64,000 bases of DNA from an uncultured Alphaproteobacteria bacterium (GTDB taxonomy: Bacteria > Pseudomonadota > Alphaproteobacteria > Rhizobiales > Hyphomicrobiaceae). Location of the stretch: positions 1,688-65,687 of the forward strand of contig CAVTVO010000037.1 in assembly GCA_963738065.1 (NCBI GenBank). The letters are read 5' to 3'. Position numbers and translations under genes: made by a program. Shown here in pieces: positions 5,801 through 43,642 of the stretch. Below the pieces are notes generated by a model. It saw only the letters and a list, made by a program, of their open reading frames with translations, made no database searches and was not told where the DNA came from. Numbering within the stretch: position 1 is the first letter of the stretch; each line of letters starts with the position of its first letter.

Positions 5801-5890
5801 GCGCTCGATCGCCAGATGCGTCTTGCCGGTGTTGGTGGGCCCGAGCACCGCCGTGACGTTGCGGATGCGGCTGGCGAGGTCGAGGCTCAT
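2859..5890 (-). pseudogene. Large superfamily-2 ATP-dependent helicase (Suv3-like helicase-related protein of alphaproteobacteria) with Arg/Pro/Glu-rich C-terminal tail; at least 2 frameshifts as sequenced
   Basis: ORF 3698..5890(-) has GPTNTGKTH Walker A, DEVQ, and ATDAIGMGLN...AGRAGR motifs. The C-terminus continues in ORF 2800..3756 (MPELPRAGLTSV...RIDMLERLADLIRPLL) after a shift at ~3766. The final ...DPDSPFAALSSLKAALEKR is in ORF 2859..3359. Confidence 0.85.
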
Positions 5891-6214
5891 TCGCAGCTGT
5901 CCTCAAGGACGAAATCGTGCCCCAGGGCATTGCAGAGTGATGTGACAAGATCAAGAGGCTACGACGAAAAAACGCTGGCCGCAGGACAGTTCCACGATCA
6001 CGGCGGAACGGCGAGCGCATTTGTGGGCGAGCACGCAAATGGCGCGTCGTCGGGGCCCATCATGGCGGTTGCTCCGGCGCTCGAATGGAAATGCGCCGCG
6101 CGTGCAGCGACCCCAAACTCTTCCTATGGACTGCCGATCCAGCCCGCGTGCTCGATCAATCGCTGCGGCAACAACGAAAGTGTCGCCGCTATGGCGGAGA
6201 GCAAGGCGTCCGCG

Positions 6215-12081: not shown

Positions 12082-12192
12082 GGTTCCCGGTCGCCTCCCT
12101 AACCCTTACGTTAACTTATTGCCAAGGCCGCTGTCCGCGCCTAGTTTCGGCTCATAATAGTGACCGGCCCGACAATCCGACAAGGTACGGCG

Positions 12193-13872
12193 ATGGGAGA
12201 GGGACGCCTCTGGGAGAAGAGCTATCCGCCCGGCGTGCGCTGGGATGCCCCGATCGCGACCTCGACCTTGCCGGCGCAGTTTGACGCCTTCACCCGCAAG
12301 TGGGCCCACAAGCCGGCCCTGGAATACCGCGACCGGCAGACGAGCTACGCCGAGCTGCGCGCCGAGCGTCGAGGCGGTCGCGTCCGGCCTGATGGACCTG
12401 GGCGTAGGCCCGGGCACGACGGTTGCGCTCTACCTCCCCAACACGCCGCTCCATCCCCTCTGCTTCTTCGGCGCGCTCAAGGCCGGCGCGCGCATCGTCC
12501 ACCTCTCCCCGCTCGATGCCGAGCGCGAGCTCGCCCACAAGCTCGAGGACTCGGGCGCGCGCACCCTTGTCACCACCAACATCGGCTCCATGGCGCTGCT
12601 GGCCCAGAAGCTGAAAGCCGACGGCCTCCTTGATCATCTGATCGTCGGCGACGATACCGCCTTCGGCCCTTCCGCCGTCCCCACCACGCCGATCGCGGCC
12701 GATGCCTCCGTCATCCGGTTCGAGGCGCTGCGCGAGGCCGGCGCCAAGAAGCTGCCGCGGCCGTGGCCGGCGGCGACCGTCGATGACATCGCCCTCCTGC
12801 AGTACACCGGCGGCACCACCGGCAAGCCCAAGGGCGCCATGCTCACCCATGCCAACCTGAGTGCGGCCTGCTCGATCTACAAGCTGTGGAGCGATCCCCA
12901 GCGCATCTCCATTCCGGGCGAGGACAAGGTGATCTGCGTCCTCCCCCTGTTCCACATCTACGCCCTGACCGCGGTGATGCTGCGCACGCTCAGCGAGGGC
13001 AATGAGCTGCTCCTGCGCGTGCGCTTCGACGTCGAGACGACGCTCAGGGACATCGAGGTGAAGAGAGCGACCGTCTTTCCCGGCGTGCCGACCATGTGGA
13101 TCGCGCTCGCCAACACGCCCGGCATCGACAAGCGCGATTTCTCCTCCCTGCGCTATGCCGGGTCCGGCGGCGCCGCCCTTCCCGTCGAGGTGGCCGAGCG
13201 CTTCCAGAAGCTCACGGGACAGCGCCTCGGCGGCGGCTGGGGCATGACCGAGACCTCGCCCGCCGGCACGGCCATGCCGCGGGAGTGGACCGGCAAGGCC
13301 GGGTCTGTCGGCCTGCCGCTGCCCGGCATCGATATGGACATCGTCGCGCTCGACGATCCCCGTCGCGTGCTGCGACCCGGCGAGAAGGGCGAGATCCGCA
13401 TCAAGGGCCCCAACGTCACCAAGGGCTACTGGAACGCGCCCGAGGAGACGGCGGCCGCCTTCGTCGACGGCTACCTGCTGACCGGCGACATCGGCACCAT
13501 GGACGAGGACGGCTACTTCTATCTCGTCGACCGCAAGAAGGACATGATCATCTCCGGCGGGTTCAACGTTTACCCTCGCACCATCGAGGAGGCGATCTAC
13601 GAGCACCCCGCCGTGGCGGAGGTGGTGGTGGTCGGCGTGAAGGATGCCTATCGTGGCGAGGCAGCAAAGGCATTCGTGCAGCTGAAGGCTGGCGCTCGGC
13701 CGTTCACCCTCGACGAGCTGCGCGGCTTCCTCGCCGACAAGATCGGCCGGCACGAGATGCCGGCGCACCTGGAGTTCCGCGACGCCCTGCCGAAGACCGC
13801 CGTCGGCAAGCTGTCGAAGAAAGAGCTGATCGAGGAGGAGCGGCAGAAGACCAAAGCCCACCGCCGAGTGCA
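12193..13872 (+). pseudogene. Long-chain/medium-chain acyl-CoA ligase (AMP-binding, FadD-like); frameshift ~12362; no in-frame stop before the thiolase ATG
   Basis: The N-terminus MGEGRLWEKSYPPGV is in frame 1. The body in frame 2 has LQYTGGTTGKPKGAMLTH, GWGMTE, TGDIG..DEDGYFYLVDRKKD and GKLSKKEL. The 3' limit is uncertain because a REP element occupies the spacer. Confidence 0.88.
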
Positions 13873-13875
13873 CGT

Positions 13876-13966
13876 GTCATCCTCGGGCTTGTCCCGAGGA
13901 TCCAGCGAACCGCAAGCGCCGGAGCAAGCTGAGAAATGGATGGTCGGGACAAGCCCGACCATGACA
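13876..13966. repeat. REP/MITE-like element: two inverted 28-nt units GTCATCCTCGGGCTTGTCCCGAGGATCC / GGATGGTCGGGACAAGCCCGACCATGAC
   Basis: Each unit is itself a hairpin, and the units are inverted relative to each other. The same family is seen at 62735-62825. Confidence 0.8.
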
Positions 13967-13990
13967 ACGCTAACGAAGAGGAACTCGACC

Positions 13991-15173
<1,183 letters not shown>

Positions 15174-15184
15174 GGGAGAGAGCC

Positions 15185-16393
15185 ATGGACCTGCGCTTCA
15201 GCCCCGAAGAGAACAAGTTCCGCGAGGAGCTGCGCACCTTCTTTCGCGAGAAGGTGCCGGCCGAAATCCGCAACAAGGTCATGGAGAGCCGGCACCTCGA
15301 CAAGTCGGAGCTGATAGAGGCGCACAAGATCCTGCACGCCAGGGGCCTGACCGTGCCGCATTGGCCCAAGGAATGGGGCGGTGCCGACTGGACGCCGGTG
15401 CAGCACTACATCTACACCGAGGAGCTGCAGTTCAACGGCGTGCCGCAGCCGCTGCCCTTCAACGTGTCGATGTGCGGTCCGGTCGTCATCGCCTTCGGCA
15501 CGCCGGAGCAGAAGAAGCGCTTCCTGCCGCGCATGGCGGCGCTGGACGACTGGTGGTGCCAGGGCTTCTCCGAGCCCGGCGCCGGGTCCGACCTCGCCGG
15601 TCTCAAGACCGCGGCCGTGCGCCAGGGCGACCACTACATCGTCAACGGCCAGAAGACCTGGACCACGCTGGCGCAGTACGCCGACTGGATCTTCTGCCTC
15701 TGCCGTACCGATCCCAGCGCCAAGAAGCAGCTCGGCATCTCGTTCATCCTGATCGACATGAAGACGCCGGGCATCACCGTGCGGCCGATCCAGACCATGG
15801 ACGGCGGCCGCGAGGTCAACGAGGTGTTCTTCGACGACGTCAAGGTGCCGGTCGAGAACCTGGTCGGGCAGGAGAACCGCGGCTGGGATTGCGCCAAGTT
15901 CCTGCTCGGCAACGAGCGCACCGGCATTGCCCGCGTCGGCTACTCCAAGCAGCGCGTGCAGCGCATCAAGGAGCTGGCAGGGCGGGTCAAGGCCGGCGAT
16001 CGGCCGCTCATCGACGACGAGCGCTTCCGCGAGAAGGTGGCGGCCGTGGAGGTGGAGCTCAAGGCGCTCGAGATGACGCAGATGCGCGTGCTCTCCGAGG
16101 ACCGCAACCGCAAGGACCGGCTGCCCAACCCCAAGTCGTCGATCCTCAAGATCAAGGGCAGCGAGATCCAGCAGCGCACGACCGAGCTGCTGCTGGAGAT
16201 CGCCGGTCCGCTGGCGCTGCCCTACCAGCCCGAGGCCGACGATCCCGAGTTCGGCTCCAACGAGCCGCCGCTCGACCTCGATTGGGCAGCTCCCGCGGCG
16301 CCGGCCTATTTCAACTACCGCAAGACCACGATCTACGGCGGCTCCAACGAGATCCAGCGCAACATTCTGGCCAAGGCCGTGCTGGGCTTCTGA
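15185..16393 (+). CDS. Acyl-CoA dehydrogenase
   Basis: MDLRFSPEENKFREEL...WWCQGFSEPGAGSDLAGL...YIVNGQKTWTT...IYGGSNEIQRNILAK; intact, 402 aa. Confidence 0.92.
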   Translation: MDLRFSPEENKFREELRTFFREKVPAEIRNKVMESRHLDKSELIEAHKILHARGLTVPHWPKEWGGADWTPVQHYIYTEELQFNGVPQPLPFNVSMCGPVVIAFGTPEQKKRFLPRMAALDDWWCQGFSEPGAGSDLAGLKTAAVRQGDHYIVNGQKTWTTLAQYADWIFCLCRTDPSAKKQLGISFILIDMKTPGITVRPIQTMDGGREVNEVFFDDVKVPVENLVGQENRGWDCAKFLLGNERTGIARVGYSKQRVQRIKELAGRVKAGDRPLIDDERFREKVAAVEVELKALEMTQMRVLSEDRNRKDRLPNPKSSILKIKGSEIQQRTTELLLEIAGPLALPYQPEADDPEFGSNEPPLDLDWAAPAAPAYFNYRKTTIYGGSNEIQRNILAKAVLGF

Positions 16394-25192: not shown

Positions 25193-26167
25193 TCACCGCT
25201 CCAGCGCAGGCCTTCGCAGCGCGCGCGCTGCAATCGTCCCGCGCTGTTGGCCTTCGACGCTCCGGGCCTCCGCGGTTGGGCCGGCGCGGTAGCGCGGAAG
25301 ATCGTCCGCGAGGCAGTAGACGAGGCAAAGTGCCAGGCTCGCCCAGACTGCCGCAGTGAAATAGAGCGACATCCAGGCGATCTCGTCCTTCCAGTGAGTG
25401 AGGTCGTGCGTTACGACCCAGCGCGTGCACGCGTCGCGGAGACCCTGGACCGGCCCGAGCATCTCGCGCCCGCCCGCAATGCCGTCGCGCCACCGGCCAA
25501 GGTACATCGGCACGTCGATGGTTATGAGGAAAGCCAGATACCCCGCAATCCCGATGACCGCCGCGACGAGGCCCAGGCGAACGATGCCCTCGAACTCCGG
25601 CAGCAGGCGGCACACGGCGATGCCCACCAGGAGGAAGGCGACGGCCCAGATCGAATTCTCGATGGCGTTGGCAAGATAGTTGGTCGTCAATACCCCGTAC
25701 CACGAGCAGCACTGCGCCACGACGATCAGCGGCACGATGATCGAGGCCACGGCCAAGGTGGTGTCCGCCCCGGCTACCCAGCCGAGCTGGGCCAGCACGA
25801 TGGCCCATTGCGCGGCGAAGGAGACCTCGGCAACGGTCGCCACGGACCGGCCGACGACGACGCTCGACAGCCAGGTATCGAACAGGCAGATCCTCTGCAC
25901 GTCCGCGCGGGGAAGGGCCGACCTGAAGGCGCAGCCGAACACGTAGGCCGCGCACAGGAACAGCATGAGCTCGATGCCAGTGGCATTGCCCTGGGCGCCC
26001 GTCGCCGCCATCGAGAACTGGCGATAGAGCAGGAACCACAGAGCGATGTTGCCGGTGCTGGCCAGCGTCAGCAACGCCCACCACCACGCCAAGGGACGTG
26101 ACGACCCCTGCCATAGCGTTCTCATCCGCCCGCTCCGCGCGTTGTCGAACTGACACCAAACCTTCAT
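25193..26167 (-). CDS. Polytopic membrane protein (~7 hydrophobic segments), unknown function
   Basis: ORF 25193..26347(-); plausible starts at 26167 (MKVW) or 26125 (MRTLWQ); no family recognised. Confidence 0.55.
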   Translation of the reverse strand: MKVWCQFDNARSGRMRTLWQGSSRPLAWWWALLTLASTGNIALWFLLYRQFSMAATGAQGNATGIELMLFLCAAYVFGCAFRSALPRADVQRICLFDTWLSSVVVGRSVATVAEVSFAAQWAIVLAQLGWVAGADTTLAVASIIVPLIVVAQCCSWYGVLTTNYLANAIENSIWAVAFLLVGIAVCRLLPEFEGIVRLGLVAAVIGIAGYLAFLITIDVPMYLGRWRDGIAGGREMLGPVQGLRDACTRWVVTHDLTHWKDEIAWMSLYFTAAVWASLALCLVYCLADDLPRYRAGPTAEARSVEGQQRGTIAARALRRPALER

Positions 26168-26220
26168 GGTAGTGTCACGTAACGCGATGGACGAGAGAAT
26201 TGTTTCGCAGCGCGCGGGCC

Positions 26221-26334
26221 TTACGGCACCTCGATCCGCACCGCGACCGCCGCGCTGGCGATGACGGCGGGGTCGTTGTTCTCCGGGTCGGCCACGTCGA
26301 CCTGCTCGCTGACGCCGATGCAGTTGAGCCGACC
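26221..26334 (-). pseudogene. Start-less 37-codon fragment duplicating the C-terminus of the Lin0512-family gene 28196..28546
   Basis: My translation is GRLNCIGVSEQVDVADPENNDPAVIASAAVAVRIEVP*, preceded by an in-frame TGA. Compare ...GGLDVADPENNDPAVIASAAIAVRIEVG* in the intact gene. Confidence 0.65.
26227..26300. repeat. Left copy of 74-bp direct repeat (71/74 identical to 28202-28275)
   Basis: Hand alignment: CACCTCGATCCGCACCGCGA(C/T)CGCCGCGCTGGCGATGACGGCGGG(G/A)TCGTTGTTCTC(C/G)GGGTCGGCCACGTCGA. Confidence 0.9.
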
Positions 26335-26410
26335 TCAGCGCCGCCAAACGTGGGACGCCGAGGAGGAAGTCCTGACGTGTGGCTCCTCTTTGCCAACGAT
26401 AGCTGCGGTG

Positions 26411-28048
26411 CTATTTCGCGATCGTTCCGCTCCGTGTAAGCGTCCTTGCGACCCTGAAGCCCAGGAAATGATAGCGATCATCCGCTCCAAAGAGAGTGTT
26501 GCGAGCGGCGGATCGAAGGTGTGGCGCGATGCTGCCCCAGCCTCCGCCACGCGAAACACGCGTTGTGCAAGCCCCCGCGAGCCAGGCAGAGCCATCTGAG
26601 GGCGCGCCCTCGTAGTTCGCGTGTCCGCAATCTTCGACCCACTCCCACACGTTGCCGATCGTGTCATGCAGGCCAAATGCATTGGCGGCAAATTTTCCGA
26701 CAGGAGCCGTGCGCACGTAACCGTCGCGACACTCAGCGAGCGGTCTGGCGGATAATTTGGAGGCATCCGTGGAGTCGGCAACGTTGCCGAACTCGCACAA
26801 CCGCATCTCGCTGTCGCCGAAGTGGTAACGCGTGTGACTGCCGGCTCGCGCGACATATTCCCATTCCGCCTCGCTCAAGAGACGATACTCCTTTGCGAGC
26901 GTCTTCGACAGCCAGGCGACGTAGGCCTTGGCATCCCGCCAGCTGACGCAGACCGCCGGGTGATCGCCCTCCTGTTGGAAGCCGGGGGACCAGAAGGAGG
27001 CACTCAGATTGATTGGGATATTCTTGTTTGGGTCGAAGTTGCTGCAGGTCTTGGGAGCCGTATGGTTCGTCTCCTGCATGAAGGCCTTGTATTGGTCGAA
27101 CGTCACCTCGAACTTTCCGCTGGCGAAGGCCTTGGCGATTGTCACCGAATGCTGCGGAGCCTCGATTTTGGAGTGGCCGGGTTCCGTTGGCGCCGATCCC
27201 ATGAGGTAAGAGCCAGCCGGAACCAAGATCATGCGCGGACAATCTCTGCACTCCTGGAACTCCTGCTTTGGCGCAAGCTGCTGCTCTTCCGCGGCGGTGA
27301 GCACGCGGTCCAGGGGTGGTGTCCAAATTGCTGGCGCGGATTTCTTCGCCTCCAGTTCGCGGCGCCGTTGTTCGGCACGGTTCGCCTGGCGCTTGGCCGT
27401 CGCGTCGCTCTTCAACTTGTCAGCTGCCGCGCGAGCAGCTGCGTCTTCAGCCTTCCTGGAGGCTTGCCGCTCCGAGCGCGGTTGCGACGGCGACGGCGCA
27501 AACGCGCCCAGAACATAAGCCGACACCAGTACGATGAGCGCCAACACTGTGCTCGATACCGCAATCAAGCTCCGGAGCTTTGGTCGCTGCAGCAACGCTC
27601 CGATATCCTTCTCCAAGGCATCCATATCGCTTGGGAAGTTCTCGTGCGTGATGGTGATTCCCTGCCGTCGTGTCAGGCCGCGCAGGTCGGCGGGCAATTC
27701 GCCGGCTTTGGGCATGCGGGCGCCGCCGACAAGGAGAGGGATCACGGCGATATCGCGCTTGAGTGCACGAGCAACTTCGAGCCGGATGAAGTCGTCGGGA
27801 TCTTCCAGGCGACGATTGCCTTCCGCATCGCGGGCATCGACCCATCGAGGCCCAATCACTGCCAGCATGATCGCGGACTGCTTCAGGTGGCGGTCCAGCA
27901 CCTGGTGGAAGTCGCGGCCGCGCTGGATGCTGTCCACATCCATAAAAAGCTGCCGGCTGCCAAAGGTGCGCTGCAAGCGTTGGTAAACACTGCGTGCGTC
28001 ACCGGCTGTGTCGTCGCGCCGATAGCTGATGAAGATCCGCCCAACCAT
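26411..28048 (-). CDS. TIR domain - single TM helix - coiled-coil linker - FGE-sulfatase/SUMF1 domain protein (545 aa)
   Basis: IFISYRRDD...DFIRLEVARAL (TIR_2 pattern with conserved Glu); LIAVSSTVLALIVLVSAYVLGAF (TM helix); CPRMILVPAGSYLMGS, HPAVCVSWRDAKAYVAWLS, GNVWEWVEDC, RVSRGGGWG, GFRVART (FGE fold). G+C is lower than the flanks. Confidence 0.85.
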   Translation of the reverse strand: MVGRIFISYRRDDTAGDARSVYQRLQRTFGSRQLFMDVDSIQRGRDFHQVLDRHLKQSAIMLAVIGPRWVDARDAEGNRRLEDPDDFIRLEVARALKRDIAVIPLLVGGARMPKAGELPADLRGLTRRQGITITHENFPSDMDALEKDIGALLQRPKLRSLIAVSSTVLALIVLVSAYVLGAFAPSPSQPRSERQASRKAEDAAARAAADKLKSDATAKRQANRAEQRRRELEAKKSAPAIWTPPLDRVLTAAEEQQLAPKQEFQECRDCPRMILVPAGSYLMGSAPTEPGHSKIEAPQHSVTIAKAFASGKFEVTFDQYKAFMQETNHTAPKTCSNFDPNKNIPINLSASFWSPGFQQEGDHPAVCVSWRDAKAYVAWLSKTLAKEYRLLSEAEWEYVARAGSHTRYHFGDSEMRLCEFGNVADSTDASKLSARPLAECRDGYVRTAPVGKFAANAFGLHDTIGNVWEWVEDCGHANYEGAPSDGSAWLAGACTTRVSRGGGWGSIAPHLRSAARNTLFGADDRYHFLGFRVARTLTRSGTIAK

Positions 28049-28195
28049 ACGCCGCCCTTGGCTTTCCGTCTTTAACGATCAAAATAGCCTCAAATCCATT
28101 GCGTGTCGTAAGGCGAATGCGCAATGCCGCCGACAGCCGATGCTGCTTCGCAACCTGAGTCGCTGTGGGCCAGTCAGTAGTGGGAACGCCGGCCT

Positions 28196-28546
28196 CTATC
28201 CCACCTCGATCCGCACCGCGATCGCCGCGCTGGCGATGACGGCGGGATCGTTGTTCTCGGGGTCGGCCACGTCGAGGCCGCCCTTGACGGCCTTCACGGT
28301 GACGTTGCCGACGGGCAGCGAGGCTTTCACCTTCTCGAGGTCGACCTTCTCCGGCCGCTGCACGCCGATCGTCACCTCCACGTCGAGCCTCTTCTTGTCG
28401 ATCTGCAACGAGCGGATGAAGGCGAGCGAGCTGTGATGCAGCGCGTCCTGCACGGCGCGCAGGGCGGCCTTGGTGTAGTCGCAGCCGTGCAGGTCGTTGC
28501 CGGAGCCCAGCTCCAGGATGACACGCGTTCTCGGGGTTTGGGCCAT
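28196..28546 (-). CDS. Lin0512-family conserved hypothetical protein (TIGR02058-like)
   Basis: MAQTPRTRVILELGSGNDLHGCDYTKAALRAVQDALHHSSL...; 116 aa. Confidence 0.7.
   Translation of the reverse strand: MAQTPRTRVILELGSGNDLHGCDYTKAALRAVQDALHHSSLAFIRSLQIDKKRLDVEVTIGVQRPEKVDLEKVKASLPVGNVTVKAVKGGLDVADPENNDPAVIASAAIAVRIEVG
28202..28275. repeat. Right copy of the 74-bp direct repeat (inside the 3' end of the Lin0512-family gene)
   Basis: see 26227-26300. Confidence 0.9.
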
Positions 28547-28554
28547 GGCGATCC

Positions 28555-28897
28555 TCAAGCGATGTCGAGGCTGACGATGGCGCAGGCGTTGGCGATCAGC
28601 GTGCCGTCGGTGCCGGCATCGTTGCGGATCTCGAGGCCGCCCTCGACCACGGTCACGGTTCCCTTGCCATAGGGCAGCACGGCCAGCACCTGCGCCTTGT
28701 CGACCAGCTCGGGTCGCGGCACGCCGATGTGCACGTCGACCATCATCGCTTCCAGCGGCTGGCCGAGCGCAGTGGCGATCGACAGCGAGTTGTGCCAGAG
28801 CGCATCGCGCAGCGCCCGGCAGGCGGCCTTGGTCGGGATCCGTGCCGCGGATGTCGGTGCCCATGCCGATTTCGAGCACCATGCGCTTCTTGGCCAT
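28555..28897 (-). pseudogene. Second Lin0512-family paralog in tandem; frameshift ~28836 as sequenced
   Basis: MAKKRMVLEIGMGTDIRGTDP| continues in ORF 28555..28746 (MMVDVHIGVPRPELVD...GGLEIRNDAGTDGTLIANACAIVSLDIA). Confidence 0.65.
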
Positions 28898-35153: not shown

Positions 35154-36539
35154 ATGAAGCCTTTGTCAACGGGGTCCGTGGAGATGAACGCGCCGGTTTC
35201 CCATATCGATCAGCTGGGCGAGGAATCCTCCGTCTGGTTCCAGCTCTCGCCGCTGCTCAAGGCGCCGAACAATCCTCTCACCATTCTCATGCGGATGGCC
35301 GAGCGCTACGGCGGCGTCATCCCCGTCAACATGGCCAACCAGCGCATCGTGCTGCTCACCGAGCCCGAGCACTTCAAGCGCGTGCTCGTCACCAAGGCCG
35401 ACGACTACATCAAGTATTTCGACGGGCTGAAGCCGATCTTCGGCAAGTCGATGATCACCCACGACGGCGTGCTCTGGCAGAAGATCCGCATGCCGCAGCA
35501 GCCGGCGTTCCACCCCGACATGTTCGCCGAGTACATCCCCTATTTCCTCGCCGCCATCCGCACCAAGATGGAGCTGTGGGCGCGCTTGGCCCAGACCGGC
35601 GAGACCTTCGAGATGGTGGAGCAGACCTGGACGCTGGCCGCGGACATGATCTGCAAGGCGCTGTTCGACCGCGAGATGCCCTTCAACCCGCACTTCGTCT
35701 TCAAGTGCGTGAAGACCTACACCGACGTGATGAACCACAAGGCCATCCGCCTCAAGAAGGTGGCCGGCGAGGAGTTCGAGATCACGGAGGAGAACGCCGC
35801 CAAGGCCATGGAGGTCTGGGGCGGGGTGCCGCCGGAGGTGTTCGCCGCCGATCCGCGCGAGCAGCGCGAGCGCACCCTGCTCAAGATGATCGAGGCGGCG
35901 GTCGCCGATCCGAGCATCCCCGAGTTCGACCAGCAGCAGGCCATCGACGAGCTCAAGCAGTACCTTTGGGCCGGCACCGAGACCACGGCGCTGACCTTGG
36001 CCTGGGCGCTCTACGAGACGTCCAAGCGCCCCGAGGCGGCCGAGCGCATCCGCCGCGAGGGCGAGGCCGTCTACGGCGACCGCGAGCCGACGGCGGCCGA
36101 CTACTCCGCGCTCGCCTACACCCGCGCGGTGATCCAGGAGACCATGCGGCTCTATCCGCCGATCTGGATGCTGATCCGCGTCGCGGCCAAGCCCGACGTG
36201 ATCGACGGCAAGGAGATTCGCGTCGGTGACCGCATCGCGCTGTTTGCCTACGGCGCCCACCACAGCCCGAAATACTGGAAGGACCCGGAGGCATTCAGCC
36301 CCGAGCGCTGGCTCGGCGACGCCGCCAAGAAGCGCATCCCCTACACCTACCTGCCCTTCGGCGGAGGCAAGCGCTCCTGCATCGGCGGCGCCATGAGCCA
36401 GGTGGAGAACACGCTGGCGCTGTCGATCCTGCTGCGCCGCTTCCGCCCCGAGTACGTCGGCCGCGAGCCCCCCGGCATCAACGCCACCGTCACGCTCACC
36501 CCCAAGGGCGGCCTGCCGTTCAAGATCCGGGCGAGCTGA
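35154..36539 (+). CDS. Cytochrome P450
   Basis: WAGTETTA (I-helix), ETMRLYPP (ExxR), FGGGKRSCIGGAMS (heme Cys loop). Start is uncertain (35142, 35154 or 35184). Confidence 0.92.
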   Translation: MKPLSTGSVEMNAPVSHIDQLGEESSVWFQLSPLLKAPNNPLTILMRMAERYGGVIPVNMANQRIVLLTEPEHFKRVLVTKADDYIKYFDGLKPIFGKSMITHDGVLWQKIRMPQQPAFHPDMFAEYIPYFLAAIRTKMELWARLAQTGETFEMVEQTWTLAADMICKALFDREMPFNPHFVFKCVKTYTDVMNHKAIRLKKVAGEEFEITEENAAKAMEVWGGVPPEVFAADPREQRERTLLKMIEAAVADPSIPEFDQQQAIDELKQYLWAGTETTALTLAWALYETSKRPEAAERIRREGEAVYGDREPTAADYSALAYTRAVIQETMRLYPPIWMLIRVAAKPDVIDGKEIRVGDRIALFAYGAHHSPKYWKDPEAFSPERWLGDAAKKRIPYTYLPFGGGKRSCIGGAMSQVENTLALSILLRRFRPEYVGREPPGINATVTLTPKGGLPFKIRAS

Positions 36540-36974
36540 GCTGAGGTTCCCACAGCCCGGGCCGCAGCCGCGCGATCGCCTCGACCTCGATCAGGAACTC
36601 CGGCTTCACCAGCCGGTTGATGACGAGAGCGTGTTGGGCGGATACTTGCCGCCTGGGAACAGCTTCGGGAACAGCGCCGCCCGCGCCGACATGAACGCTG
36701 GGATGAAGTCGGCGCTGGTGATGTAGGTCGTGAGCTGCACCACCTGCTCGAAGTCGGCGCCGAGGTCCTTGAGGATCTTGCCCAGGTTGTCGAACACGAC
36801 CGGCACCTGCGCCGCGACATCTCCCACACCCACCGGCGTGCCCTTCGCATCGATGGCGACCTGCCCGGCGATGAAGGCGATCTCGCCCGGCGTCATGCGC
36901 GCGACATGGCTGTACATGCCCTGCGCCGGCGCGGCGCTCGGCGGATTGACATAGGTGACGCCTGACTTGGCCAT
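36520..36974 (-). pseudogene. RidA/YjgF-family protein; frameshift ~36625; reconstructed 3' end overlaps the P450 stop by ~20 nt
   Basis: MAKSGVTYVNPPSAAPAQGMYSHVARM...IAFIAGQVAID...VVQLTTYI...PPNTL|VVINRLVKPEFLIEVEAIA. Confidence 0.8.
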
Positions 36975-37194
36975 GGTGTGCTCCTGTATGACCGTGGTCG
37001 GGCGAAGCTTAGCGCGTTTGCGGTCTGGAGCCAGCATCCGTATCCAAAAGCCGACCTGCGCGCGTTGCGGTGCGTGTCAGCTACGCCTCTCGGCATCTCA
37101 GGGGTCGACAGAAACTGGATCGGTGCATATGGCCGAGCGGCGGGCCGAAGTAACCGCCTGCTGCTTCATGGCGGCAATAAATGCAATCCGGCGC

Positions 37195-37920
37195 TCAAAG
37201 TTTGAAGCCGGCCATCTGGCCGTCATTGTAGAACATTTTCACGGTATCGAGCGAGAACTCACCGAGATCCTTGCCCGCCGTCGCGAGCTTCTTGAAGATG
37301 TCGGGAGTGACTGTAATGACATGACAGCCGATCTCGTTCGCCTGGAATACATTGAGAACTTCGCGGGGGCTTGCCCAGATCACCTCCATGCCGCCGGCCG
37401 CGTTGCAAGCCTCAACCGCGTGGCGCATGAACGGCAAGGGGTCACGTCCGGTGTCGGCAATGCGCCCTGCAAAGACCGAAACATAGGAATGCTTCGTACC
37501 TTTGAGGGCGTCCACCACCTCGTCGATCTGCGGCACCGTCAAGATGGCCGTGATGTTGAGCTGCACTCCTTGCTTCACCAGCCGGCGGATCAGCGGTGCC
37601 GCGCTTTGAGTTTTTGTATTGGTGACCGGGATCTTGACGAAGACATTGCTTCCCCAGGCCGCGATCTTGAGAGCCTGCCGCTCCATATCGTCGAAGTCGT
37701 CGGTAAATACCTCGAATGAGATCGGCCGGTCCTTGATCTGCGTCAGGATGTCCTTGGCGAAGCCTTCGTAGTCGGAGAGACCCGCCTGTCGCATCAGCGT
37801 TGGATTGGTCGTGAAACCTTTGATCGCCTTGTTGGCGTAAAGCTCCAGCATCCGCGCCTTGTCGGCGCCGTCAGCAAAGATTTGGATCTTTAGCGCCGCA
37901 ACACTCGGTTTCATGACCAT
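37195..37920 (-). CDS. Transaldolase-family protein (short, Fsa/TalC-like)
   Basis: KIQIFADGADKARMLELYANKAIKGFTTNPTLM...NVFVKIPVT...LNITAI...YVSVFAGRI. Confidence 0.85.
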   Translation of the reverse strand: MVMKPSVAALKIQIFADGADKARMLELYANKAIKGFTTNPTLMRQAGLSDYEGFAKDILTQIKDRPISFEVFTDDFDDMERQALKIAAWGSNVFVKIPVTNTKTQSAAPLIRRLVKQGVQLNITAILTVPQIDEVVDALKGTKHSYVSVFAGRIADTGRDPLPFMRHAVEACNAAGGMEVIWASPREVLNVFQANEIGCHVITVTPDIFKKLATAGKDLGEFSLDTVKMFYNDGQMAGFKL

Positions 37921-37926
37921 CCCTTT

Positions 37927-38499
37927 CTACGGTATCGCTGCGATGAGGTCCGGCACGGCCGCTGCAAGCGACGTCGTGGCAATATCGGGCTTCTCCGGGC
38001 GCCGCTCGGCATAGCCATAGTCGAGGAAAACGGTGCGGCAGCCCGCTGCTCGTCCCGCCTCCACGTCCCGCCATCGGTCACCGACCATGAAGCTCGTGGG
38101 GAGATCGACGTTCCATCTCCGTGCCGCGGTGAGAAGAAGGCCGGGTTTCGGCTTGCGGCACTCGCATTCATCCGCATCGTCATGCGGGCAGACGCAGACT
38201 TCGTCAAGCCCCAGCCGCATCTGCAGCTCTGCATTGATGGCGTCGACCATCCCTTTTTCCGTCTTGCCGCGAGCGATATCGGGTTGGTTGGTCACGACGA
38301 TGAGCAGAAATCCGGCCCTCTTGAGACGAGAGCAAGCATCTTCAACGCCTGGCAGCAGGACCATCTCGGCCAAGGATGCTGGCGGATAAGGCCGGCGGTT
38401 GCGGACCTCCGCGGCGACGAGCACGCCATCGCGATCGAGAAAGACCGCCCGGCGCTGCGTGCTTGCTTCGCGCATGGCCGTATCCGCAGGCATCGACAC
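37927..38499 (-). CDS. gmhB: HAD-IIIA phosphatase, GmhB-like (D,D-heptose 1,7-bisphosphate phosphatase family)
   Basis: VFLDRDGVL...VVTNQPDIARG...CPHDDADECECRKPKPGLL...MVGDRWRDVEAG. Confidence 0.8.
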   Translation of the reverse strand: MSMPADTAMREASTQRRAVFLDRDGVLVAAEVRNRRPYPPASLAEMVLLPGVEDACSRLKRAGFLLIVVTNQPDIARGKTEKGMVDAINAELQMRLGLDEVCVCPHDDADECECRKPKPGLLLTAARRWNVDLPTSFMVGDRWRDVEAGRAAGCRTVFLDYGYAERRPEKPDIATTSLAAAVPDLIAAIP

Positions 38500-39096
38500 C
38501 TAGCGAACGGACTCCCATTTGGTCGCCGCAGCCTTGAGCGCTGGATGGCTGACCAACAGATGCCAAATGACCGCCGCGATGCCTTCTGTGTGCGGGGTCA
38601 CGCGATCGGAGTACAGAGGCGGAATGACGACACACGCGGTCGCATGCACCTTCGTGTAGCCGCCGTTGCGACCGACGATCCCATAGATGCTCGCACCGCA
38701 AGACTTTGCGGTATCGATCGCGCGCATCAGGTTGACGGACACGTTCTTGGCCTTGTCGCCCCCGCCCACGGAGAATATCAGGAGGGCGTCGCGCGCAGTG
38801 ATCCGCGAGCCCTTGAGCCATGCCTCAAACACCGTCTCCCAACCCTCGTCATTGGTGCGCGCGGTGAGCTCGGAGACATTGTCGGTTGGTGCATAGGCTT
38901 CGAAGGCGCAGATTTTGCGAAAGTCATTGACGGCATGGCTCGCATGCCCAGCCGAGCCGCCGACACCGAGAATGAAAAGCCGGCCTCCCCTGTCTCGAAC
39001 GTCGGCAAGTCCGCTTGCAACCGCTTCGATCACGGAGACATCCAGCGCGGAGAGGATGTCGGTCGTTTCCTTCAGAAACTCGGACGCGAAGGACAT
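38500..39096 (-). CDS. gmhA: SIS-domain sugar-phosphate isomerase, GmhA-like
   Basis: GGRLFILGVGGSAGHASHAVNDF...LLIFSVGGG...; its stop abuts the gmhB-like start. Confidence 0.75.
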   Translation of the reverse strand: MSFASEFLKETTDILSALDVSVIEAVASGLADVRDRGGRLFILGVGGSAGHASHAVNDFRKICAFEAYAPTDNVSELTARTNDEGWETVFEAWLKGSRITARDALLIFSVGGGDKAKNVSVNLMRAIDTAKSCGASIYGIVGRNGGYTKVHATACVVIPPLYSDRVTPHTEGIAAVIWHLLVSHPALKAAATKWESVR

Positions 39097-39346
39097 GGTG
39101 CTTTTCTCGAGATGTCGAAATTTGCGTGCTCGCGAGACCTGGCTTCAGTCGGGCGGCGGGTGGGCACGTACGGCGCGACGGCGATCTCGGCAGTCTGGTC
39201 CGTCGAGCTATCGTGCACTCATCTGGCCTCGAACGAACGACGGCATTTCGCATGTATTGCGCCCAAGGCAGTGGATAGAAGAGTGCTGCTATCCCTGTCA
39301 AGGGCGTGGCCGCGCTCACTTGTGTGGGCCGGCCGAGGAGGAGAAT

Positions 39347-40219
39347 CTAGTCGTGCGCGCCAGAGTGAGTGCCGATCTCGAGCAAGACGATTTCCGGCGG
39401 AGTGCCAATGCGGATCGGCAGTCCGCTCGTCCCGATGCCGCTGGTAACATAGAGCAAGCGGCCGTCCTTCTCCACGAGCCCGTAAGCCCAGTGCCGGGGA
39501 GCCCGGCTAGCAGTAATCAGCGCACCAATTCCGGGGAGCCTGATTTGCCCGCCGTGGGTATGTCCGGCCAGCGTCAGGTGCGGTCCTTGCGGGACGTGGG
39601 CAAACCAAATCGGATCGTGTGCCAACACGATGGTCGGCTCGTTGCCGAGGCTAGCAAGTAGTGCATGGGCTGAAGGACGCATGATGCGGGCATCAGGGAT
39701 GCCAACGATGTGGAAGCTTCGGCCTTCGAAGTCGGCACTCCGACGCTCGTCATCGAGCACCTCGATTCCGGCCTTCCGCAACGCGTCGGCGATCTCCTGC
39801 TCGCCATATGCGATGTCGTGGTTGCCGAGTACAGCAAACCGGCCAACGGGACCGACAAGATCGGCCAGGATCGACGCCACGACCCGCGGTGGCACACGGC
39901 CGCCGCCGAATAGCTGCATGTTGACATAGTCGCCCCCGAGCAGCACGAGATGGGGGCGAAGCTTGTTGGCCTCCGCAACTATCGTGCGCAACCGCGCAAC
40001 GTCGCGCGCGTGGGAGCCGGTGTGGAAATCGGACAGCAACGCGACACGCAGTGGCCGCGACCAAGCGGGCCAACCTGCGAGTTGGAGTGCGAGTTGCCGG
40101 ACAACGAGGGGTTGGGCGCGGCTGAGACGCTCGAATAGGCCTTTTCGGCCGCGCTCGTCCGTGAATGGCGGCCGCAGCAAGTCACGGACGAAGCGGTCAT
40201 ACGACATGCACGCAAGCAT
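39347..40219 (-). CDS. Metallophosphoesterase (YaeI-like)
   Basis: LSDFHTG...LLGGDYV...LGNHD...LAHDP...GHTHGGQ motifs. Confidence 0.8.
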   Translation of the reverse strand: MLACMSYDRFVRDLLRPPFTDERGRKGLFERLSRAQPLVVRQLALQLAGWPAWSRPLRVALLSDFHTGSHARDVARLRTIVAEANKLRPHLVLLGGDYVNMQLFGGGRVPPRVVASILADLVGPVGRFAVLGNHDIAYGEQEIADALRKAGIEVLDDERRSADFEGRSFHIVGIPDARIMRPSAHALLASLGNEPTIVLAHDPIWFAHVPQGPHLTLAGHTHGGQIRLPGIGALITASRAPRHWAYGLVEKDGRLLYVTSGIGTSGLPIRIGTPPEIVLLEIGTHSGAHD

Positions 40220-40401
40220 GTCTTGCCAGCTTGACCCGCCAAGTGGTCGCCGCGGCCGGTGCCGCCCTCAGGAGCATTGGATTGCGCCGCAGATGATTGT
40301 GGCCGCGCGTGCGGCGCATTGCGGTCGAGATCGATGCGCCTTCTCGGCGCGTTTGCAGCCCAGTCCCGATGAGCGCGACGTGCATCGCCCCAACCCCCAC
40401 C

Positions 40402-41709
40402 TTATGCCTTGGGATGCCTACCTCGGCCGATCGCGTCATATGCGAAGCCGAGGCCGGTAAGCTGATCGGCATTCCACAGGCCGGCCGTGTCGAGCACGTA
40501 AGGCTTGGCCATGCGGCTCTTGATCGCCGCGAAATCGAGATCGCTGTATTCCTTCCATGGGGTCATCAGAACCAATGCATCCGCTCCGCCGACCGCGGCG
40601 AGCGGATCTTCGAAGAAGGTGAATTCGGAGTGCGCCCTCAGCTCGTCCCTGCTGGCGCGAGGGTCGTGCGCATTCACTTTGGCACCACGCCGCAACAGGT
40701 CGCCGATCACCTCGATCGCGGCGGATCGGCGCAACGTGCTCGTATCGGGCTTGTAGGTGAGCCCCAGCACGGCCACGCGCGCGGTGGCGAGATCGGGGAT
40801 GACTTGGGCGAGCTTGCGCACGACCAGGTGGTTCTGCTCCGAGTTGGCAAGCCACGCCCCGTCGAGCAAAGGCGTGCCGAGATCGAAGCGCCGGCCGAGC
40901 CGACGCAACGTCTGCATGTCGCGCGCGAGCGTGCCGCCGGAGAAGCCCAGTCCCGGCAGCAGCATGGCCTTGGTGCCGACGCGCGGTTCCAATCGCAGCA
41001 ACTCGCCGACACGCTTGCCATCGGCGCCGACCGCGTCGCAAAGGTTGCCGAGCTCGTTTGCGAAGCAGATGCTCAGCCCGAGGAAGCCGTTGAGCGCGTG
41101 CTTCATCATCTCCCCGGTGCGCACGCTCACCTGATGCCATTTGTCGGCGAGTGGGCCGATGATCGTCAGCAGGCGCTCGAAGGCGGCCGGGTCGTCACAT
41201 CCGATCACCGGCAACGCCGGTGCCATGAAGCGCTCGATGGCTTGGCCGAGCCGGAGATTTTCCGGCTGGTAGGCGATCGTGGCGGATGCGTTCGGCGCGA
41301 CCCTACTCACCAAGTCCTTCAGCGCGCCGCAGGTCCCGACCGGAACTTGTGCCGTCACGAGGATGACCGCGCTCGGCTGTAGCGCTGGCGCAACGGTTTC
41401 GAGGGTCTGGAATATCTCGCTCAAATCGCTCTCGTCGTTCTCGTCCACCGGGGTATCGAACATGACGAACACGAAGGGGGTGTCGCGGACGGCTTGTGCA
41501 TGATCCGTCGTGAAGGCCAATCGGCCGGAATTCACGCCCTTGGCGATCAGGTCGTTCAGCCCAGGCTCGAACAGCGGTGCCTGACCTGCCTGCAGGCGCG
41601 CCACGCGTTCGACATCCCCATCCGCACCGATCACCTCGTGGCCCATCTCGGCGAGGCACGCGGCACCGACGACGCCCTGGTGCCAAAGGCCGAGAACGGC
41701 AATCTTCAT
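40402..41709 (-). CDS. Nucleotide-sugar dehydrogenase (UDP-glucose/GDP-mannose dehydrogenase family)
   Basis: MKIAVLGLWHQGVVGAACLA...; ...GLGFSGGTLARD...; GLTYKPDTSTLRRS. Confidence 0.88.
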   Translation of the reverse strand: MKIAVLGLWHQGVVGAACLAEMGHEVIGADGDVERVARLQAGQAPLFEPGLNDLIAKGVNSGRLAFTTDHAQAVRDTPFVFVMFDTPVDENDESDLSEIFQTLETVAPALQPSAVILVTAQVPVGTCGALKDLVSRVAPNASATIAYQPENLRLGQAIERFMAPALPVIGCDDPAAFERLLTIIGPLADKWHQVSVRTGEMMKHALNGFLGLSICFANELGNLCDAVGADGKRVGELLRLEPRVGTKAMLLPGLGFSGGTLARDMQTLRRLGRRFDLGTPLLDGAWLANSEQNHLVVRKLAQVIPDLATARVAVLGLTYKPDTSTLRRSAAIEVIGDLLRRGAKVNAHDPRASRDELRAHSEFTFFEDPLAAVGGADALVLMTPWKEYSDLDFAAIKSRMAKPYVLDTAGLWNADQLTGLGFAYDAIGRGRHPKA

Positions 41710-41770
41710 CGGACCCACACCTGGCTATCGGGCTTGTCGAGCATGTGGCGAATTGCGATTCGCACCGAGT

Positions 41771-41800
41771 GATCGCGAGGTGCCTGATCGCGAGGTGCCA
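41771..41800. repeat. 2 x 15-nt tandem duplication GATCGCGAGGTGCC(T/A) in the divergent spacer
   Basis: read directly; 29/30 identical. Confidence 0.9.
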
Positions 41801-42135
41801 TCGTGTTGGCTAGGTTCGAGCCGAGCAATCCCGCTCCGCCAAGGACGAAGCGGTTCCCTATGGCCCAAACGAGGGGGACCGTCAACGACGAGCTGGACGC
41901 ATGGGCAGAACACCGACCAAGACGGCGACAGACGAAACGCGACGCCCTGGAGCCGAGCCACGTCCGCTGCTTCAAGGTTGTGAACGATCCGCGGTTCGAA
42001 GCCCCAGATGCCTTCGAAGGTGTCAATTCGGACTACCAAGCGCTAGACTTGAGCGGACTGTTTTGCAGACCAGGCTCACCGGGCATGCCCGACCGTTCAT
42101 GGAGCACCCTGCATGATCTGGAGGAATAGTTTGCG

Positions 42136-42849
42136 ATGCAGTGCGTGATCCTGGCTGGGGGACTGGGGACTCGGATCAAGGGGCGCAGCGGTGAGCTCCC
42201 GAAGGCCCTGATCCCTGTGCTCGGCAAACCTTTCATCTTCTATCAGCTGGAGTGGCTGGCGCGGCAAGGCGTGCGGCAGGTCGTCTTGTCGGTCGGTCAC
42301 CGGGGAGCGGCGATCACACAGGCTGTCGGCGACGGAGCAAGGTTCGGCGTCTCAGTGGCGTATTGCGACGAGGGCGAGGCGCTGCGCGGCACCGGGGGAG
42401 CCTTGCGGCTTGCCGCCGATCTCAATTTGCTGAACCCCGGCTTCTTCGTTCTCTATGGCGATTCTTACCTTCCGATCGAGCTTGCGCCCGTCTGGCTGAC
42501 CTCAGACGAGGGACGGGTGTGCACGATGACCGTGATGCGCAATTCCGGAAGATGGGACCGCAGCAACGTTGTTCTGCGCGATGGCGAGGTTCTCTACGAT
42601 AAATTTGCGTCCGGCCAGGCAGCTATGGAAATGGAGCATATCGACTATGGTTTAACCGTTTTGCGACGCGATGTAATCGTGAGCGAAATCGCCGCAAATG
42701 AGGTGATGGACATGGCGAGTCTTTTGCACACGCTGAGCGTTACCAAGCGATTGCGCGCCTTCGAAGTGTTCGAGCGGTTCTACGAGATAGGGTCGCCGGA
42801 AGGCCTCGATGATTTCGAGGCCTATGTCCGCGCCGGGGGGACAGGTTAG
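42136..42849 (+). CDS. Sugar-1-phosphate nucleotidyltransferase (HddC/GMP-like)
   Basis: GGAGGA RBS at 42120; MQCVILAGGLGTRIKGRSGELPKALIPV...VLYGDSYL... Confidence 0.85.
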   Translation: MQCVILAGGLGTRIKGRSGELPKALIPVLGKPFIFYQLEWLARQGVRQVVLSVGHRGAAITQAVGDGARFGVSVAYCDEGEALRGTGGALRLAADLNLLNPGFFVLYGDSYLPIELAPVWLTSDEGRVCTMTVMRNSGRWDRSNVVLRDGEVLYDKFASGQAAMEMEHIDYGLTVLRRDVIVSEIAANEVMDMASLLHTLSVTKRLRAFEVFERFYEIGSPEGLDDFEAYVRAGGTG

Positions 42850-43044
42850 CAACCCGTGCTCGGGGGTGCTGGGAGCACGCCGCCATGTTGGCAGCTCGTG
42901 GCGAGCATGCGGGACCCTGCCCAGCGCGCGTCAACGGCCGCTAAATCAAGGAGTGCCATGATGGCAGGGCACGGCTCGCCTATGGCAGCGGTGCTTTCGA
43001 GCTGGTAAAGCCTTGGAACGAGGCAAAGCAAGGCATCTCACCCC

Positions 43045-43642
43045 GTGAAGCGGCAAGCCACAATCGATCGCTCCACCAAGGAGACCAAGATCAAGGCCAG
43101 CGTCGATCTCGACGGGTCGGGGGCCTACGACATCGCGACCGGCATCGGCTTCCTCGACCACATGCTGGAGCAACTCTCGCGCCACTCGCTGATCGACATC
43201 ACGCTGAAGGCCAAGGGCGACCTGCACATCGACTTCCACCACACCACCGAGGATGCCGGCATCGTGCTGGGCCAGGCGGTGGCCAAGGCGCTGGGCGACA
43301 AGCAGGGCATCGCGCCGCTATGCGTGCGTCCACCTGCCCATGGACGAGGTGCTGACGCGGGTGGCAATCGACGTTTCGGGGCGGCCGCACCTGGTCTGGA
43401 AGGTGGCCTTCCCGACGCCGAAGATCGGCGAGATGGACACCGAGCTGTTCCACGAGTGGTTCCAGGCCTTCGCCATGAACGCCGGCATCACCCTGCACGT
43501 GGAGACGCTCTACGGCGCCAACAGCCACCACATCGCCGAGACCTGCTTCAAGGGCCTGGCCCGCGCGCTGCGCGAGGCCGTGGCGATCGATCCGCGCCAG
43601 GCTGGGCGTGTGCCGTCGACCAAGGGCTCGCTCAGCGTCTGA
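43045..43642 (+). pseudogene. hisB: Imidazoleglycerol-phosphate dehydratase; frameshift ~43312 as sequenced
   Basis: [18 protein letters not shown]...[14 protein letters not shown]...[11 protein letters not shown]...|[13 protein letters not shown]...[16 protein letters not shown]. Confidence 0.92.

Follow-up and report, generated by a model that had tools for sequence, protein, structure and literature searches.

A TIR protein with a predicted PvdO-like periplasmic domain in a lower-G+C single-gene islet bounded by direct repeats in a Hyphomicrobiaceae contig

We analyzed a 64-kb stretch of contig CAVTVO010000037.1 from an uncultured Hyphomicrobiaceae bacterium (hereafter, the window), in which a single gene lies between two direct repeats of the 3′ end of a Lin0512-family gene. 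This gene encodes a TIR domain, one transmembrane (TM) segment and a C-terminal domain with the fold of formylglycine-generating enzymes (FGE). Both domains are present, residues Glu91 and YRR of the TIR domain are invariant in the family, and the single TM segment is found family-wide. A previous reading of the sequence alone had described an intact open reading frame (ORF) of 545 residues on the reverse strand, which our analysis bears out, every motif quoted being found in the ORF. The gene and the parts of its product are as follows.

26411..28048, (-): TIR-TM-FGE gene, 545 aa, intact (ORF list, Pfam, AlphaFold)
27638..28048, (-): TIR domain, residues 1-137, predicted to be cytoplasmic (Pfam, SARM1 alignment, family alignment)
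28016-28024, (-): YRR codons of the FISYRR motif; no variation at Y9, R10 or R11 among 26 relatives
27776..27778, (-): codon of Glu91, the candidate catalytic residue (SARM1 alignment and invariance in the 26-sequence alignment)
27512..27568, (-): TM segment, residues 161-179 (LIAVSSTVLALIVLVSAYV); KD19 = 2.43, the sole such peak, inside the predicted helix 138-180
27338..27475, (-): charged helical stalk, residues 192-237; AlphaFold helix with pLDDT ~91
26444..27241, (-): PvdO-like FGE-sulfatase (C-type-lectin-type) domain, residues 270-535, predicted to be periplasmic (Pfam, PvdO 5HHA, Foldseek)
27239-27250, (-): CxxC motif (C267/C270)

Pfam searches place TIR_2 at residues 5-123 and FGE-sulfatase at residues 270-535, in agreement with the identities first assigned by eye. 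TIR_2 (PF13676) scores 45.6 bits against a curated gathering cutoff of 28, and FGE-sulfatase (PF03781) scores 201 bits (E = 3e-59) with the full-length model covered. The AlphaFold model, built on 26 full-length relatives, has a mean pLDDT of 86.9 and divides into the TIR domain (1-137), a helix (138-180), a disordered hinge (181-191), a second helix (192-237) and the FGE domain (250-540). Residues 1-137 alternate between strand and helix in a beta-alpha arrangement, with pLDDT >90 over most of the domain. The best solved relative of this domain is the TIR of SARM1, which aligns with it end to end (E = 1e-4) and shares its N-terminal FISYRR motif. In the alignment, Glu91 (RLEVARAL) stands opposite the Glu of SARM1 HKEIVTAL ('KDWVHKEIVTAL'), the catalytic residue E642. 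The 26-sequence family alignment shows no variation at Y9, R10, R11, W69 and Glu91, and the Glu motif is kept in 97 of the 120 listed matches to the TIR module; the conserved Glu that had been pointed out earlier falls on the catalytic position of SARM1.

The one hydrophobic segment of the protein, at residues 161-179, corresponds to the single TM helix previously proposed. Exactly one strong hydrophobic segment separates the domains in 24/26 relatives, and an equivalent single segment is found in 19/21 further TIR+FGE proteins. Both the length and the composition of the linker from this segment to the FGE domain are hypervariable in the alignment of relatives. In the 15 residues flanking the segment, Lys and Arg total 82 on the TIR side versus 34 on the FGE side across the 24 relatives, and the protein has all 8 of its Cys between residues 267 and 494, in its C-terminal part. 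PvdO, to which the C-terminal domain is related (see below), is a Sec-exported periplasmic protein by experiment (PMC9305348). Because of this positive-inside bias, the C-terminal position of the Cys residues and the export of PvdO, the sequence supports a TIR domain that would be cytoplasmic and an FGE domain that would be periplasmic, as the sequence-only reading had it, in a predicted single-pass type II inner-membrane protein whose TM helix is followed by a helical or low-complexity stalk. That reading had also placed a probable coiled coil after the TM helix: a long helix is indeed modeled there, but a single-chain model cannot show a coiled coil.

The C-terminal domain is ~50% identical to PvdO (5HHA; E = 9e-57), which is also its top Foldseek match (TM score 0.90 normalised to PvdO). 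Foldseek extends to bacterial and human FGEs with E = 1e-19, and PorK/GldK are found among the FGE-fold matches; true FGEs are only distant relatives. At the positions of the copper-binding catalytic Cys pair of FGE (human C336/C341), the alignment has no Cys at either place, 'GGSYMCHRSYCYRYR' standing opposite 'GGGW...GSIAPHLR' in the alignment with human FGE. We therefore rejected a true FGE, despite the fold. The Cys residues conserved in at least 90% of the family alignment are instead the CxxC pair C267/C270 and a second pair, C474/C494. PvdO proper was likewise rejected: the NCBIfam PvdO model NF051459 (dihydropyoverdine dehydrogenase) gives 247 bits against an equivalog cutoff of 500, the annotated window ORFs include no pyoverdine genes and, specifically, no PvdP/PvdM/PvdN-type gene is found among ORFs annotated within ±10 kb or at 36-45 kb. 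Since the FGE catalytic Cys pair is missing, a binding role is plausible, and we infer that the periplasmic domain is a binding module rather than a formylglycine-generating enzyme.

Alternatively, the protein may act in the periplasm as an enzyme or scaffold anchored in the membrane, with a PvdO-like role in the envelope or in metabolite handling; its TIR domain would then be a mere interaction or oligomerization module in the cytoplasm, involved neither in immunity nor in NAD cleavage. PvdO is the closest relative, with the identity and the 247 bits given above, FGE folds also form structural rings, as the PorK/GldK matches recall, and most of the family neighborhoods that we sampled are metabolic or housekeeping. 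Set against this are the distance from the PvdO cutoff and the lack of pyoverdine genes, together with published observations that PvdO always co-occurs with PvdP and that purified PvdO is inactive, without cofactor (PMC6206403). The invariance of Glu91 and YRR across the family would also be hard to explain for a mere adaptor, and we regard this alternative as unlikely.

We then considered the family as a whole, its composition being counted on the 120 best of >6000 database matches. TIR_2 and FGE-sulfatase are combined in 51/120 of these best matches (clusters), nearly always with a TM segment between the domains, while caspase + FGE accounts for 14/120 and protein kinase + FGE for 4/120. 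The same order of cytoplasmic domain, TM segment and FGE domain recurs in two of the four kinase fusions; the caspase fusions show no more than a signal-like segment at the N terminus. With the TIR module alone as query, many TIR+TM proteins are recovered, some with other C-terminal domains. The architecture is thus modular, the same FGE subfamily standing behind TIR, caspase and kinase domains and the TIR+TM chassis carrying other C-terminal domains. This large uncharacterized family, a variant of TIR effector proteins that spans the membrane, is abundant in Alphaproteobacteria from soil, for example in Bradyrhizobium and Hyphomicrobiales. The impression of an uncharacterized one-off architecture, gained from the single sequence, did not hold in view of these numbers and of a domain syntax that had already been predicted. 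The nearest homolog (locus L084) is only 68-70% identical and lies in a different gene context.

Seven family neighborhoods were sampled, and no conserved partner gene was found across them. They fall out as follows.

Locus L081, Bradyrhizobium sp. AUGA SZCCT0283, JAFCLU010000031.1, 1-17650: conflict-island-like neighborhood
Locus L179: neighborhood rich in transposases and group II intron reverse transcriptases
Five other sampled loci: metabolic or housekeeping neighborhoods

At L081, a 1414-aa TIR_2-nSTAND1-WD40 protein is encoded directly downstream of the TIR-FGE family member, and two PG_binding_1 proteins and a DUF4231/SLATT_1 protein are encoded upstream. At L179, a reverse transcriptase of 510 aa that carries a group II intron maturase domain (4482-6014) is encoded ~1 kb upstream of the family member, amid transposase fragments. 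Two loci carry a divergent DUF3551 gene (99-103 aa) immediately upstream of the TIR-FGE gene (L083 7597-7908, L182 7566-7865), also with TctC nearby; the window has no DUF3551 counterpart, and the adjacency probably reflects shared synteny and not a functional pairing. In the survey for defense islands that the sequence-only reading had called for, a conflict-like context was seen in only one of the seven sampled neighborhoods. In the window itself, no defense gene is found within ±10 kb of the gene, where the genes are metabolic or housekeeping (acyl-CoA enzymes, SDRs, HU, glyoxalase, Hda, AI-2E transporter, CDP-alcohol phosphatidyltransferase, PurM, P450). A plasmid-borne family was rejected, as no match covered at least 80% of the protein among 72,556 plasmids, and so was a phage-borne one, viral contigs giving separate TIR or FGE matches only.

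The gene is set among the following features of the window (GC3, G+C content at third codon positions).

28555-28897, (-): upstream Lin0512 paralog, with a frameshift near 28835
28196..28549, (-): resident gene of the Lin0512 family (LIN2), with its 3′ end repeated (Pfam Lin0512_fam 8.9e-37, GC3 0.93)
28187..28275, (-): right repeat copy, the functional Lin0512 3′ end (...AAIAVRIEVG-stop) plus ~9 nt
28049..28195, (-): spacer upstream of the TIR-FGE gene, 147 nt, 57.8% G+C
26301..26410, (-): spacer between the gene stop and the left repeat, 110 nt, similar to nothing found
26213..26300, (-): left repeat copy, an orphan Lin0512 3′ end (...AAVAVRIEVP-stop)
25193..26167, (-): downstream membrane-protein gene adjoining the left repeat, >7000 homologs

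The core repeats, 26227-26300 and 28202-28275, are 71/74 identical (blastn E = 3e-31), exactly as first counted, and gapped alignment widens the homology beyond what had been stated, to ~88 nt with ragged ends (26213-26300 versus 28187-28275), running through the stop codon and ~9 nt further. No third copy is found within the window by blastn. As proposed before, the right copy is the true 3′ end of the intact gene LIN2, whose product is up to 93% identical at the amino acid level to proteins of Hyphomicrobiales metagenome-assembled genomes, and the left copy lies inside a start-less frame of 37 codons (26224-26334, stop 26221-26223) directly behind an in-frame TGA (26335-26337). This left copy is truncated at codon 92 and abuts unrelated sequence. 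The proximal 57 nt of the upstream spacer are conserved with the locus of the nearest homolog (blastn, window 28105..26445 versus L084) and are likely a 5′ untranslated region or promoter traveling with the gene; no sigma-70 consensus is found in this spacer. The 110-nt downstream spacer has neither a terminator nor an Rfam match, and Rfam gives no match around the islet.

The islet between the repeats (26301-28201) has 61.5% G+C versus a window mean of 67.3% (standard deviation 2.5%, same-size windows), and only 1.6% of same-size windows are as low, all others being at 36-43 kb. The GC3 of the gene is 0.72, compared with 0.87-0.93 in adjacent genes, and the compositional step coincides with the repeat edges. 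A G+C dip had been noted from hand counts; its direction stands, while its size (50-58% versus ~70%) reflects line-level extremes and was overstated. The nearest homolog is compositionally native in a ~59% G+C genome, and in five other genomes (those of the nearest homolog and of four further relatives) the TIR-FGE gene has a G+C content equal to or above that of its flanks. Because the gene is never below its flanks in these genomes, we rejected low G+C as a family property. Altogether, the match between dip and repeat boundaries and the behavior of the relatives uphold the earlier proposal of foreign acquisition, and the gene is probably of foreign origin and horizontally acquired.

A second lower-G+C region lies at ~36400-43200 (minimum 60.0%, GC3 ~0.72-0.75). 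It holds a cluster of sugar-nucleotide/polysaccharide type, with genes for a transaldolase-like protein, a HAD phosphatase, a SIS isomerase, a metallophosphoesterase, a UDP-glucose/GDP-mannose dehydrogenase and a nucleotidyltransferase, and may be another horizontally variable segment.

Two lines of evidence bear on how the islet came to lie between two Lin0512 ends. First, the repeat copies differ above all around the last codon, the stop and the 3′ untranslated region, at 5/15 positions there versus 3/74 in the core (Fisher p = 0.003; Poisson p = 0.008 even with two-fold faster evolution at the gene end), and Lin0512 orthologs differ from one another at the same gene end. Because the differences cluster where orthologs differ, two alleles, one resident and one insert-borne, are favored over in situ duplication. 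Second, no integrase or transposase is found within ±10 kb, consistent with what had been noticed from the sequence, no tRNA is found in the 64-kb window, and terminal inverted repeats are lacking: aligned in inverted orientation, the two ends give a best score of 12 versus a shuffle mean of 15. We thus infer that an insert carrying its own Lin0512 end would fit the sequence better than a target-site duplication; the "duplication of the target" invoked in the sequence-only reading is the weaker explanation. In the course that we favor, the gene with ~150 nt upstream and ~110 nt downstream would have come from a lower-G+C lineage, on circular or linear DNA bearing its own copy of the Lin0512 end, and would have been integrated by recombination at the end of the resident Lin0512 gene, either through a Campbell-type or att-type single crossover or through homology-facilitated illegitimate recombination. 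The resident Lin0512 3′ end would thereby have been left as the orphan fragment. A single crossover of circular DNA with the ~88-nt Lin0512 end would reproduce the observed structure without any resident recombinase. If so, the locus is a small, clean example of single-gene acquisition without a recombinase.

Several routes were discarded along the way. A transposon or insertion sequence was rejected for lack of a transposase within ±10 kb and of terminal inverted repeats, and an integrase-mediated island because, although att-like repeats and deviant G+C are present, there is no integrase/recombinase within ±10 kb and no tRNA in the window. A decayed third Lin0512 paralog was rejected too, tblastn showing no Lin0512 homology upstream of 26300; with neither inverted repeats nor Lin0512 homology beyond the repeat, the transposon and the decayed paralog are both unlikely. 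A recurrent insertion hotspot was rejected as well, 0/80 relatives having a second Lin0512 end or a TIR-FGE gene at this place.

A mobile unit could nonetheless have inserted in the Lin0512 3′ end and created a 74-88-nt target-site duplication in situ, the copies diverging later. The direct repeats exactly bracket the low-G+C segment, and at all three substitutions of the 74-nt core it is the left, non-functional copy that has the derived state; both observations speak for this account. The lack of a transposase, an integrase or terminal inverted repeats counts against it, however, as does the excess of differences at the gene end, which persists when a two-fold end rate is allowed. Target-site duplications of 74-88 nt are also atypical of transposition, and on balance we find this account improbable.

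The neighborhood also leaves room for the view that nothing was inserted, the gene being a deviant long-term resident and the fragment a remnant of local duplication or deletion in a decaying region. Both window flanks are non-syntenic in all 160 loci and two long contigs that we compared (80 species-level loci with the Lin0512 pair, 80 metagenomic loci with the membrane gene and the two nearest long contigs), and the site is seen there neither empty nor filled; the neighborhood thus looks like a lineage-specific mosaic. The upstream Lin0512 paralog is frameshifted, and other window genes have a GC3 of ~0.72. Against this, composition changes in a step at the repeat edges, next to genes of much higher GC3, in five other genomes the gene is no poorer in G+C than its flanks, no Lin0512 homology extends past the repeat, and the nearest homolog, ~70% identical, sits in another context. 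We consider the absence of any insertion distinctly improbable. Least probable of all, and very unlikely in our judgment, is an assembly chimera in which a low-G+C segment of another organism was joined at shared Lin0512 sequence. The contig appears to be of metagenome type, the protein cluster comprises just one sequence, from one 86-kb contig, and the nearby homopolymer frameshift hints at sequencing error. Yet a chimeric join switches once within the shared repeat and would not be expected to leave two diverged copies, one truncated at codon 92, and both flanks are host-like in composition, with the same strand and gene order resumed beyond the islet.

The flanking genes themselves gave further observations. 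In the upstream Lin0512 paralog, a single extra base within a C-run (gatCCCgacc) shifts the frame at codon ~22, where its relatives read ...GSDPTKAACRAL... in a single frame; the frameshift makes both Lin0512 paralogs appear in the ORF list as one fused 233-aa ORF (28196..28897), and the upstream paralog is either a pseudogene or a homopolymer assembly error. The membrane protein of 25193-26167 is multi-pass and conserved, with homologs mostly from soil metagenomes, and has no Pfam or NCBIfam match. Its relatives at 81-84% identity are found in entirely different contexts, with DNA homology limited to the gene itself, and in its relatives on long contigs DNA homology starts only at ~26184. A glyoxalase gene beside the membrane gene at one locus (L180) was tried as an empty site and rejected, as it is not homologous to the window glyoxalase. 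Exact-protein look-ups gave no match.

We next compared the protein with known systems. The TIR NADases of SARM1, Thoeris, CBASS and Pycsar have in common with it the TIR fold, and its FISYRR motif and the Glu at the catalytic position align with SARM1. While Thoeris, CBASS and Pycsar sense in the cytoplasm, whether via another protein, by a nucleotide signal or with cytoplasmic sensors fused to the TIR, the window TIR is membrane-tethered and its sole other domain is predicted to be extracytoplasmic. No ThsA-like or cyclase partner and no SIR2, SLOG or Macro gene is found nearby among the annotated ORFs. The PADLOC match to ThsB1 (E = 6.6e-6) covers 70 residues only, with a weak TIR-level likeness to SAVED-TIR models too, and NCBIfam ThcB4 scores 33.9 bits against a cutoff of 220. 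We thus rejected membership in Thoeris, given sub-threshold ThsB-family scores and no adjacent ThsA-type effector. With PvdO, the protein shares the F-x-D-C-x-x-C-P-E-M motif, the missing FGE catalytic Cys pair and a periplasmic location, here predicted; PvdO is, however, a soluble single-domain protein of pyoverdine clusters with PvdP, whereas the window protein has a TIR domain and a TM segment in place of a signal peptide.

A further comparison is with predicted conflict systems. The "FGS" domain, whose fold is that of C-type lectins, is always C-terminal, has many N-terminal partners in such systems and is often diversified by diversity-generating retroelements (DGRs) (Kaur et al. 2020, PMC7159879). 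DGR targets join TIR, STAND or kinase modules with C-type-lectin (CLec) domains, some of them predicted periplasmic (10.1101/2023.09.22.558884), and FGE-sulfatase-like sensors occur among defense STANDs (PMC13581612). An FGE-type lectin C-terminal to a TIR, caspase or STAND module is thus already described, as a prediction; such folds serve as variable ligand-binding domains of DGRs and are read as the putative sensors of STAND/vWA conflict systems. The window protein shares with the FGS/CLec systems a C-terminal FGE-type lectin fold behind a TIR/caspase/kinase/STAND-type module and differs in having no NTPase, vWA/MoxR partner, EAD or DGR, making it a lone-gene, simplest form. A DGR target was considered and rejected: the last 600 nt of the gene match no template repeat anywhere in the 64-kb window, no DGR reverse transcriptase is found among the annotated window ORFs, and the reverse transcriptase at L179 is of group II intron type, with no template or variable repeat (TR/VR).

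Tsi3, a type VI secretion system (T6SS) immunity protein, is FGE-like and protects purely by binding its effector (10.1101/2021.05.21.445229). It resembles the C-terminal domain as a non-enzymatic FGE fold that binds a foreign, envelope-delivered protein, and PvdO is its top structural relative too. Tsi3, however, stands alone and is encoded beside its effector and vgrG, while the window domain is coupled to a TIR predicted to be cytoplasmic; no tse3, vgrG or T6SS gene is found in the annotated neighborhood of the window gene. In receptor Ser/Thr kinases and Toll-like receptors (TLRs), as in the predicted layout here, an extracytoplasmic binding domain is joined through one TM helix to a cytoplasmic output domain; kinase-TM-FGE relatives occur in the same FGE subfamily, and the cytoplasmic domain of TLRs is also a TIR. 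The window protein differs from TLRs in its predicted opposite, N-in/C-out orientation and in a TIR of the enzymatic SARM1 type rather than the adaptor type. The relation to receptor kinases and TLRs is one of analogy, not whole-protein homology.

Taken jointly, these observations are best explained by a type II TIR-TM-PvdO-like receptor with a ligand-gated TIR NADase, acquired on a repeat-carrying insert, an explanation to which we give about an even chance of being right as a whole. An extracytoplasmic ligand, for which a phage or toxin protein or an envelope-derived molecule would be candidates, would bind the periplasmic PvdO-like domain, and binding would alter the oligomeric state of the stalk and TM helices. 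TIR NADases become active when they self-associate in an ordered manner, and the cytoplasmic TIR domains could in this way enter the ordered assemblies that these enzymes require. Cleavage of NAD+ would then lead either to its depletion with growth arrest or to the production of a signal nucleotide. That periplasmic binding switches on the cytoplasmic TIR NADase in this manner is plausible. Going further, the TIR-TM-FGE protein may be a bacterial counterpart of TLRs in logic, a one-protein outside-in immune receptor whose NADase is activated by clustering; we propose this tentatively, as the less probable, bolder step. To our knowledge, all characterized bacterial TIR systems and nearly all characterized antiphage sensors detect their trigger in the cytoplasm. 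If the proposal is true, the receptor would recognize a phage receptor-binding protein, a T6SS- or colicin-type toxin or envelope fragments before cytoplasmic entry, a sensing mode so far undemonstrated for any TIR defense system.

Several points weigh against this receptor reading. A catalytic-type Glu is needed for NADase activity, but its presence in the sequence is no proof of that activity. The PADLOC and NCBIfam matches of the TIR to Thoeris proteins are weak and sub-threshold, and PvdO is itself regarded as a putative oxidoreductase, so that, by analogy, an enzymatic periplasmic role is possible. A conflict-like neighborhood was met at only one of the seven loci (L081). As to acquisition, several other window genes have a GC3 of ~0.72-0.75 in a crude window-wide gene set, an empty site was seen neither in the 80 species-level loci with the Lin0512 pair nor in the 80 metagenomic membrane-gene loci and the two nearest long contigs, and none of the loci examined had Lin0512 beside a TIR-FGE gene, as a donor locus would. 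In the literature, we found no paper on a TIR-TM-FGE protein and no experiment on any family member.

The family joins a TIR of enzymatic type to a predicted periplasmic binding fold, without a partner gene, and would therefore offer a compact test case for two questions, namely whether bacteria have extracytoplasmic immune sensing and how gating of a TIR NADase across a membrane is possible. Its domain syntax is common to the kinase and caspase fusions, so that a result obtained with it would generalize.

Elsewhere in the window, at 12164-16393 (+), AMP-binding, Thiolase_N and the full set of three acyl-CoA dehydrogenase domains lie in one stop-free frame of 1409 aa, which represents either an unusual fusion protein or adjacent genes that share a frame.

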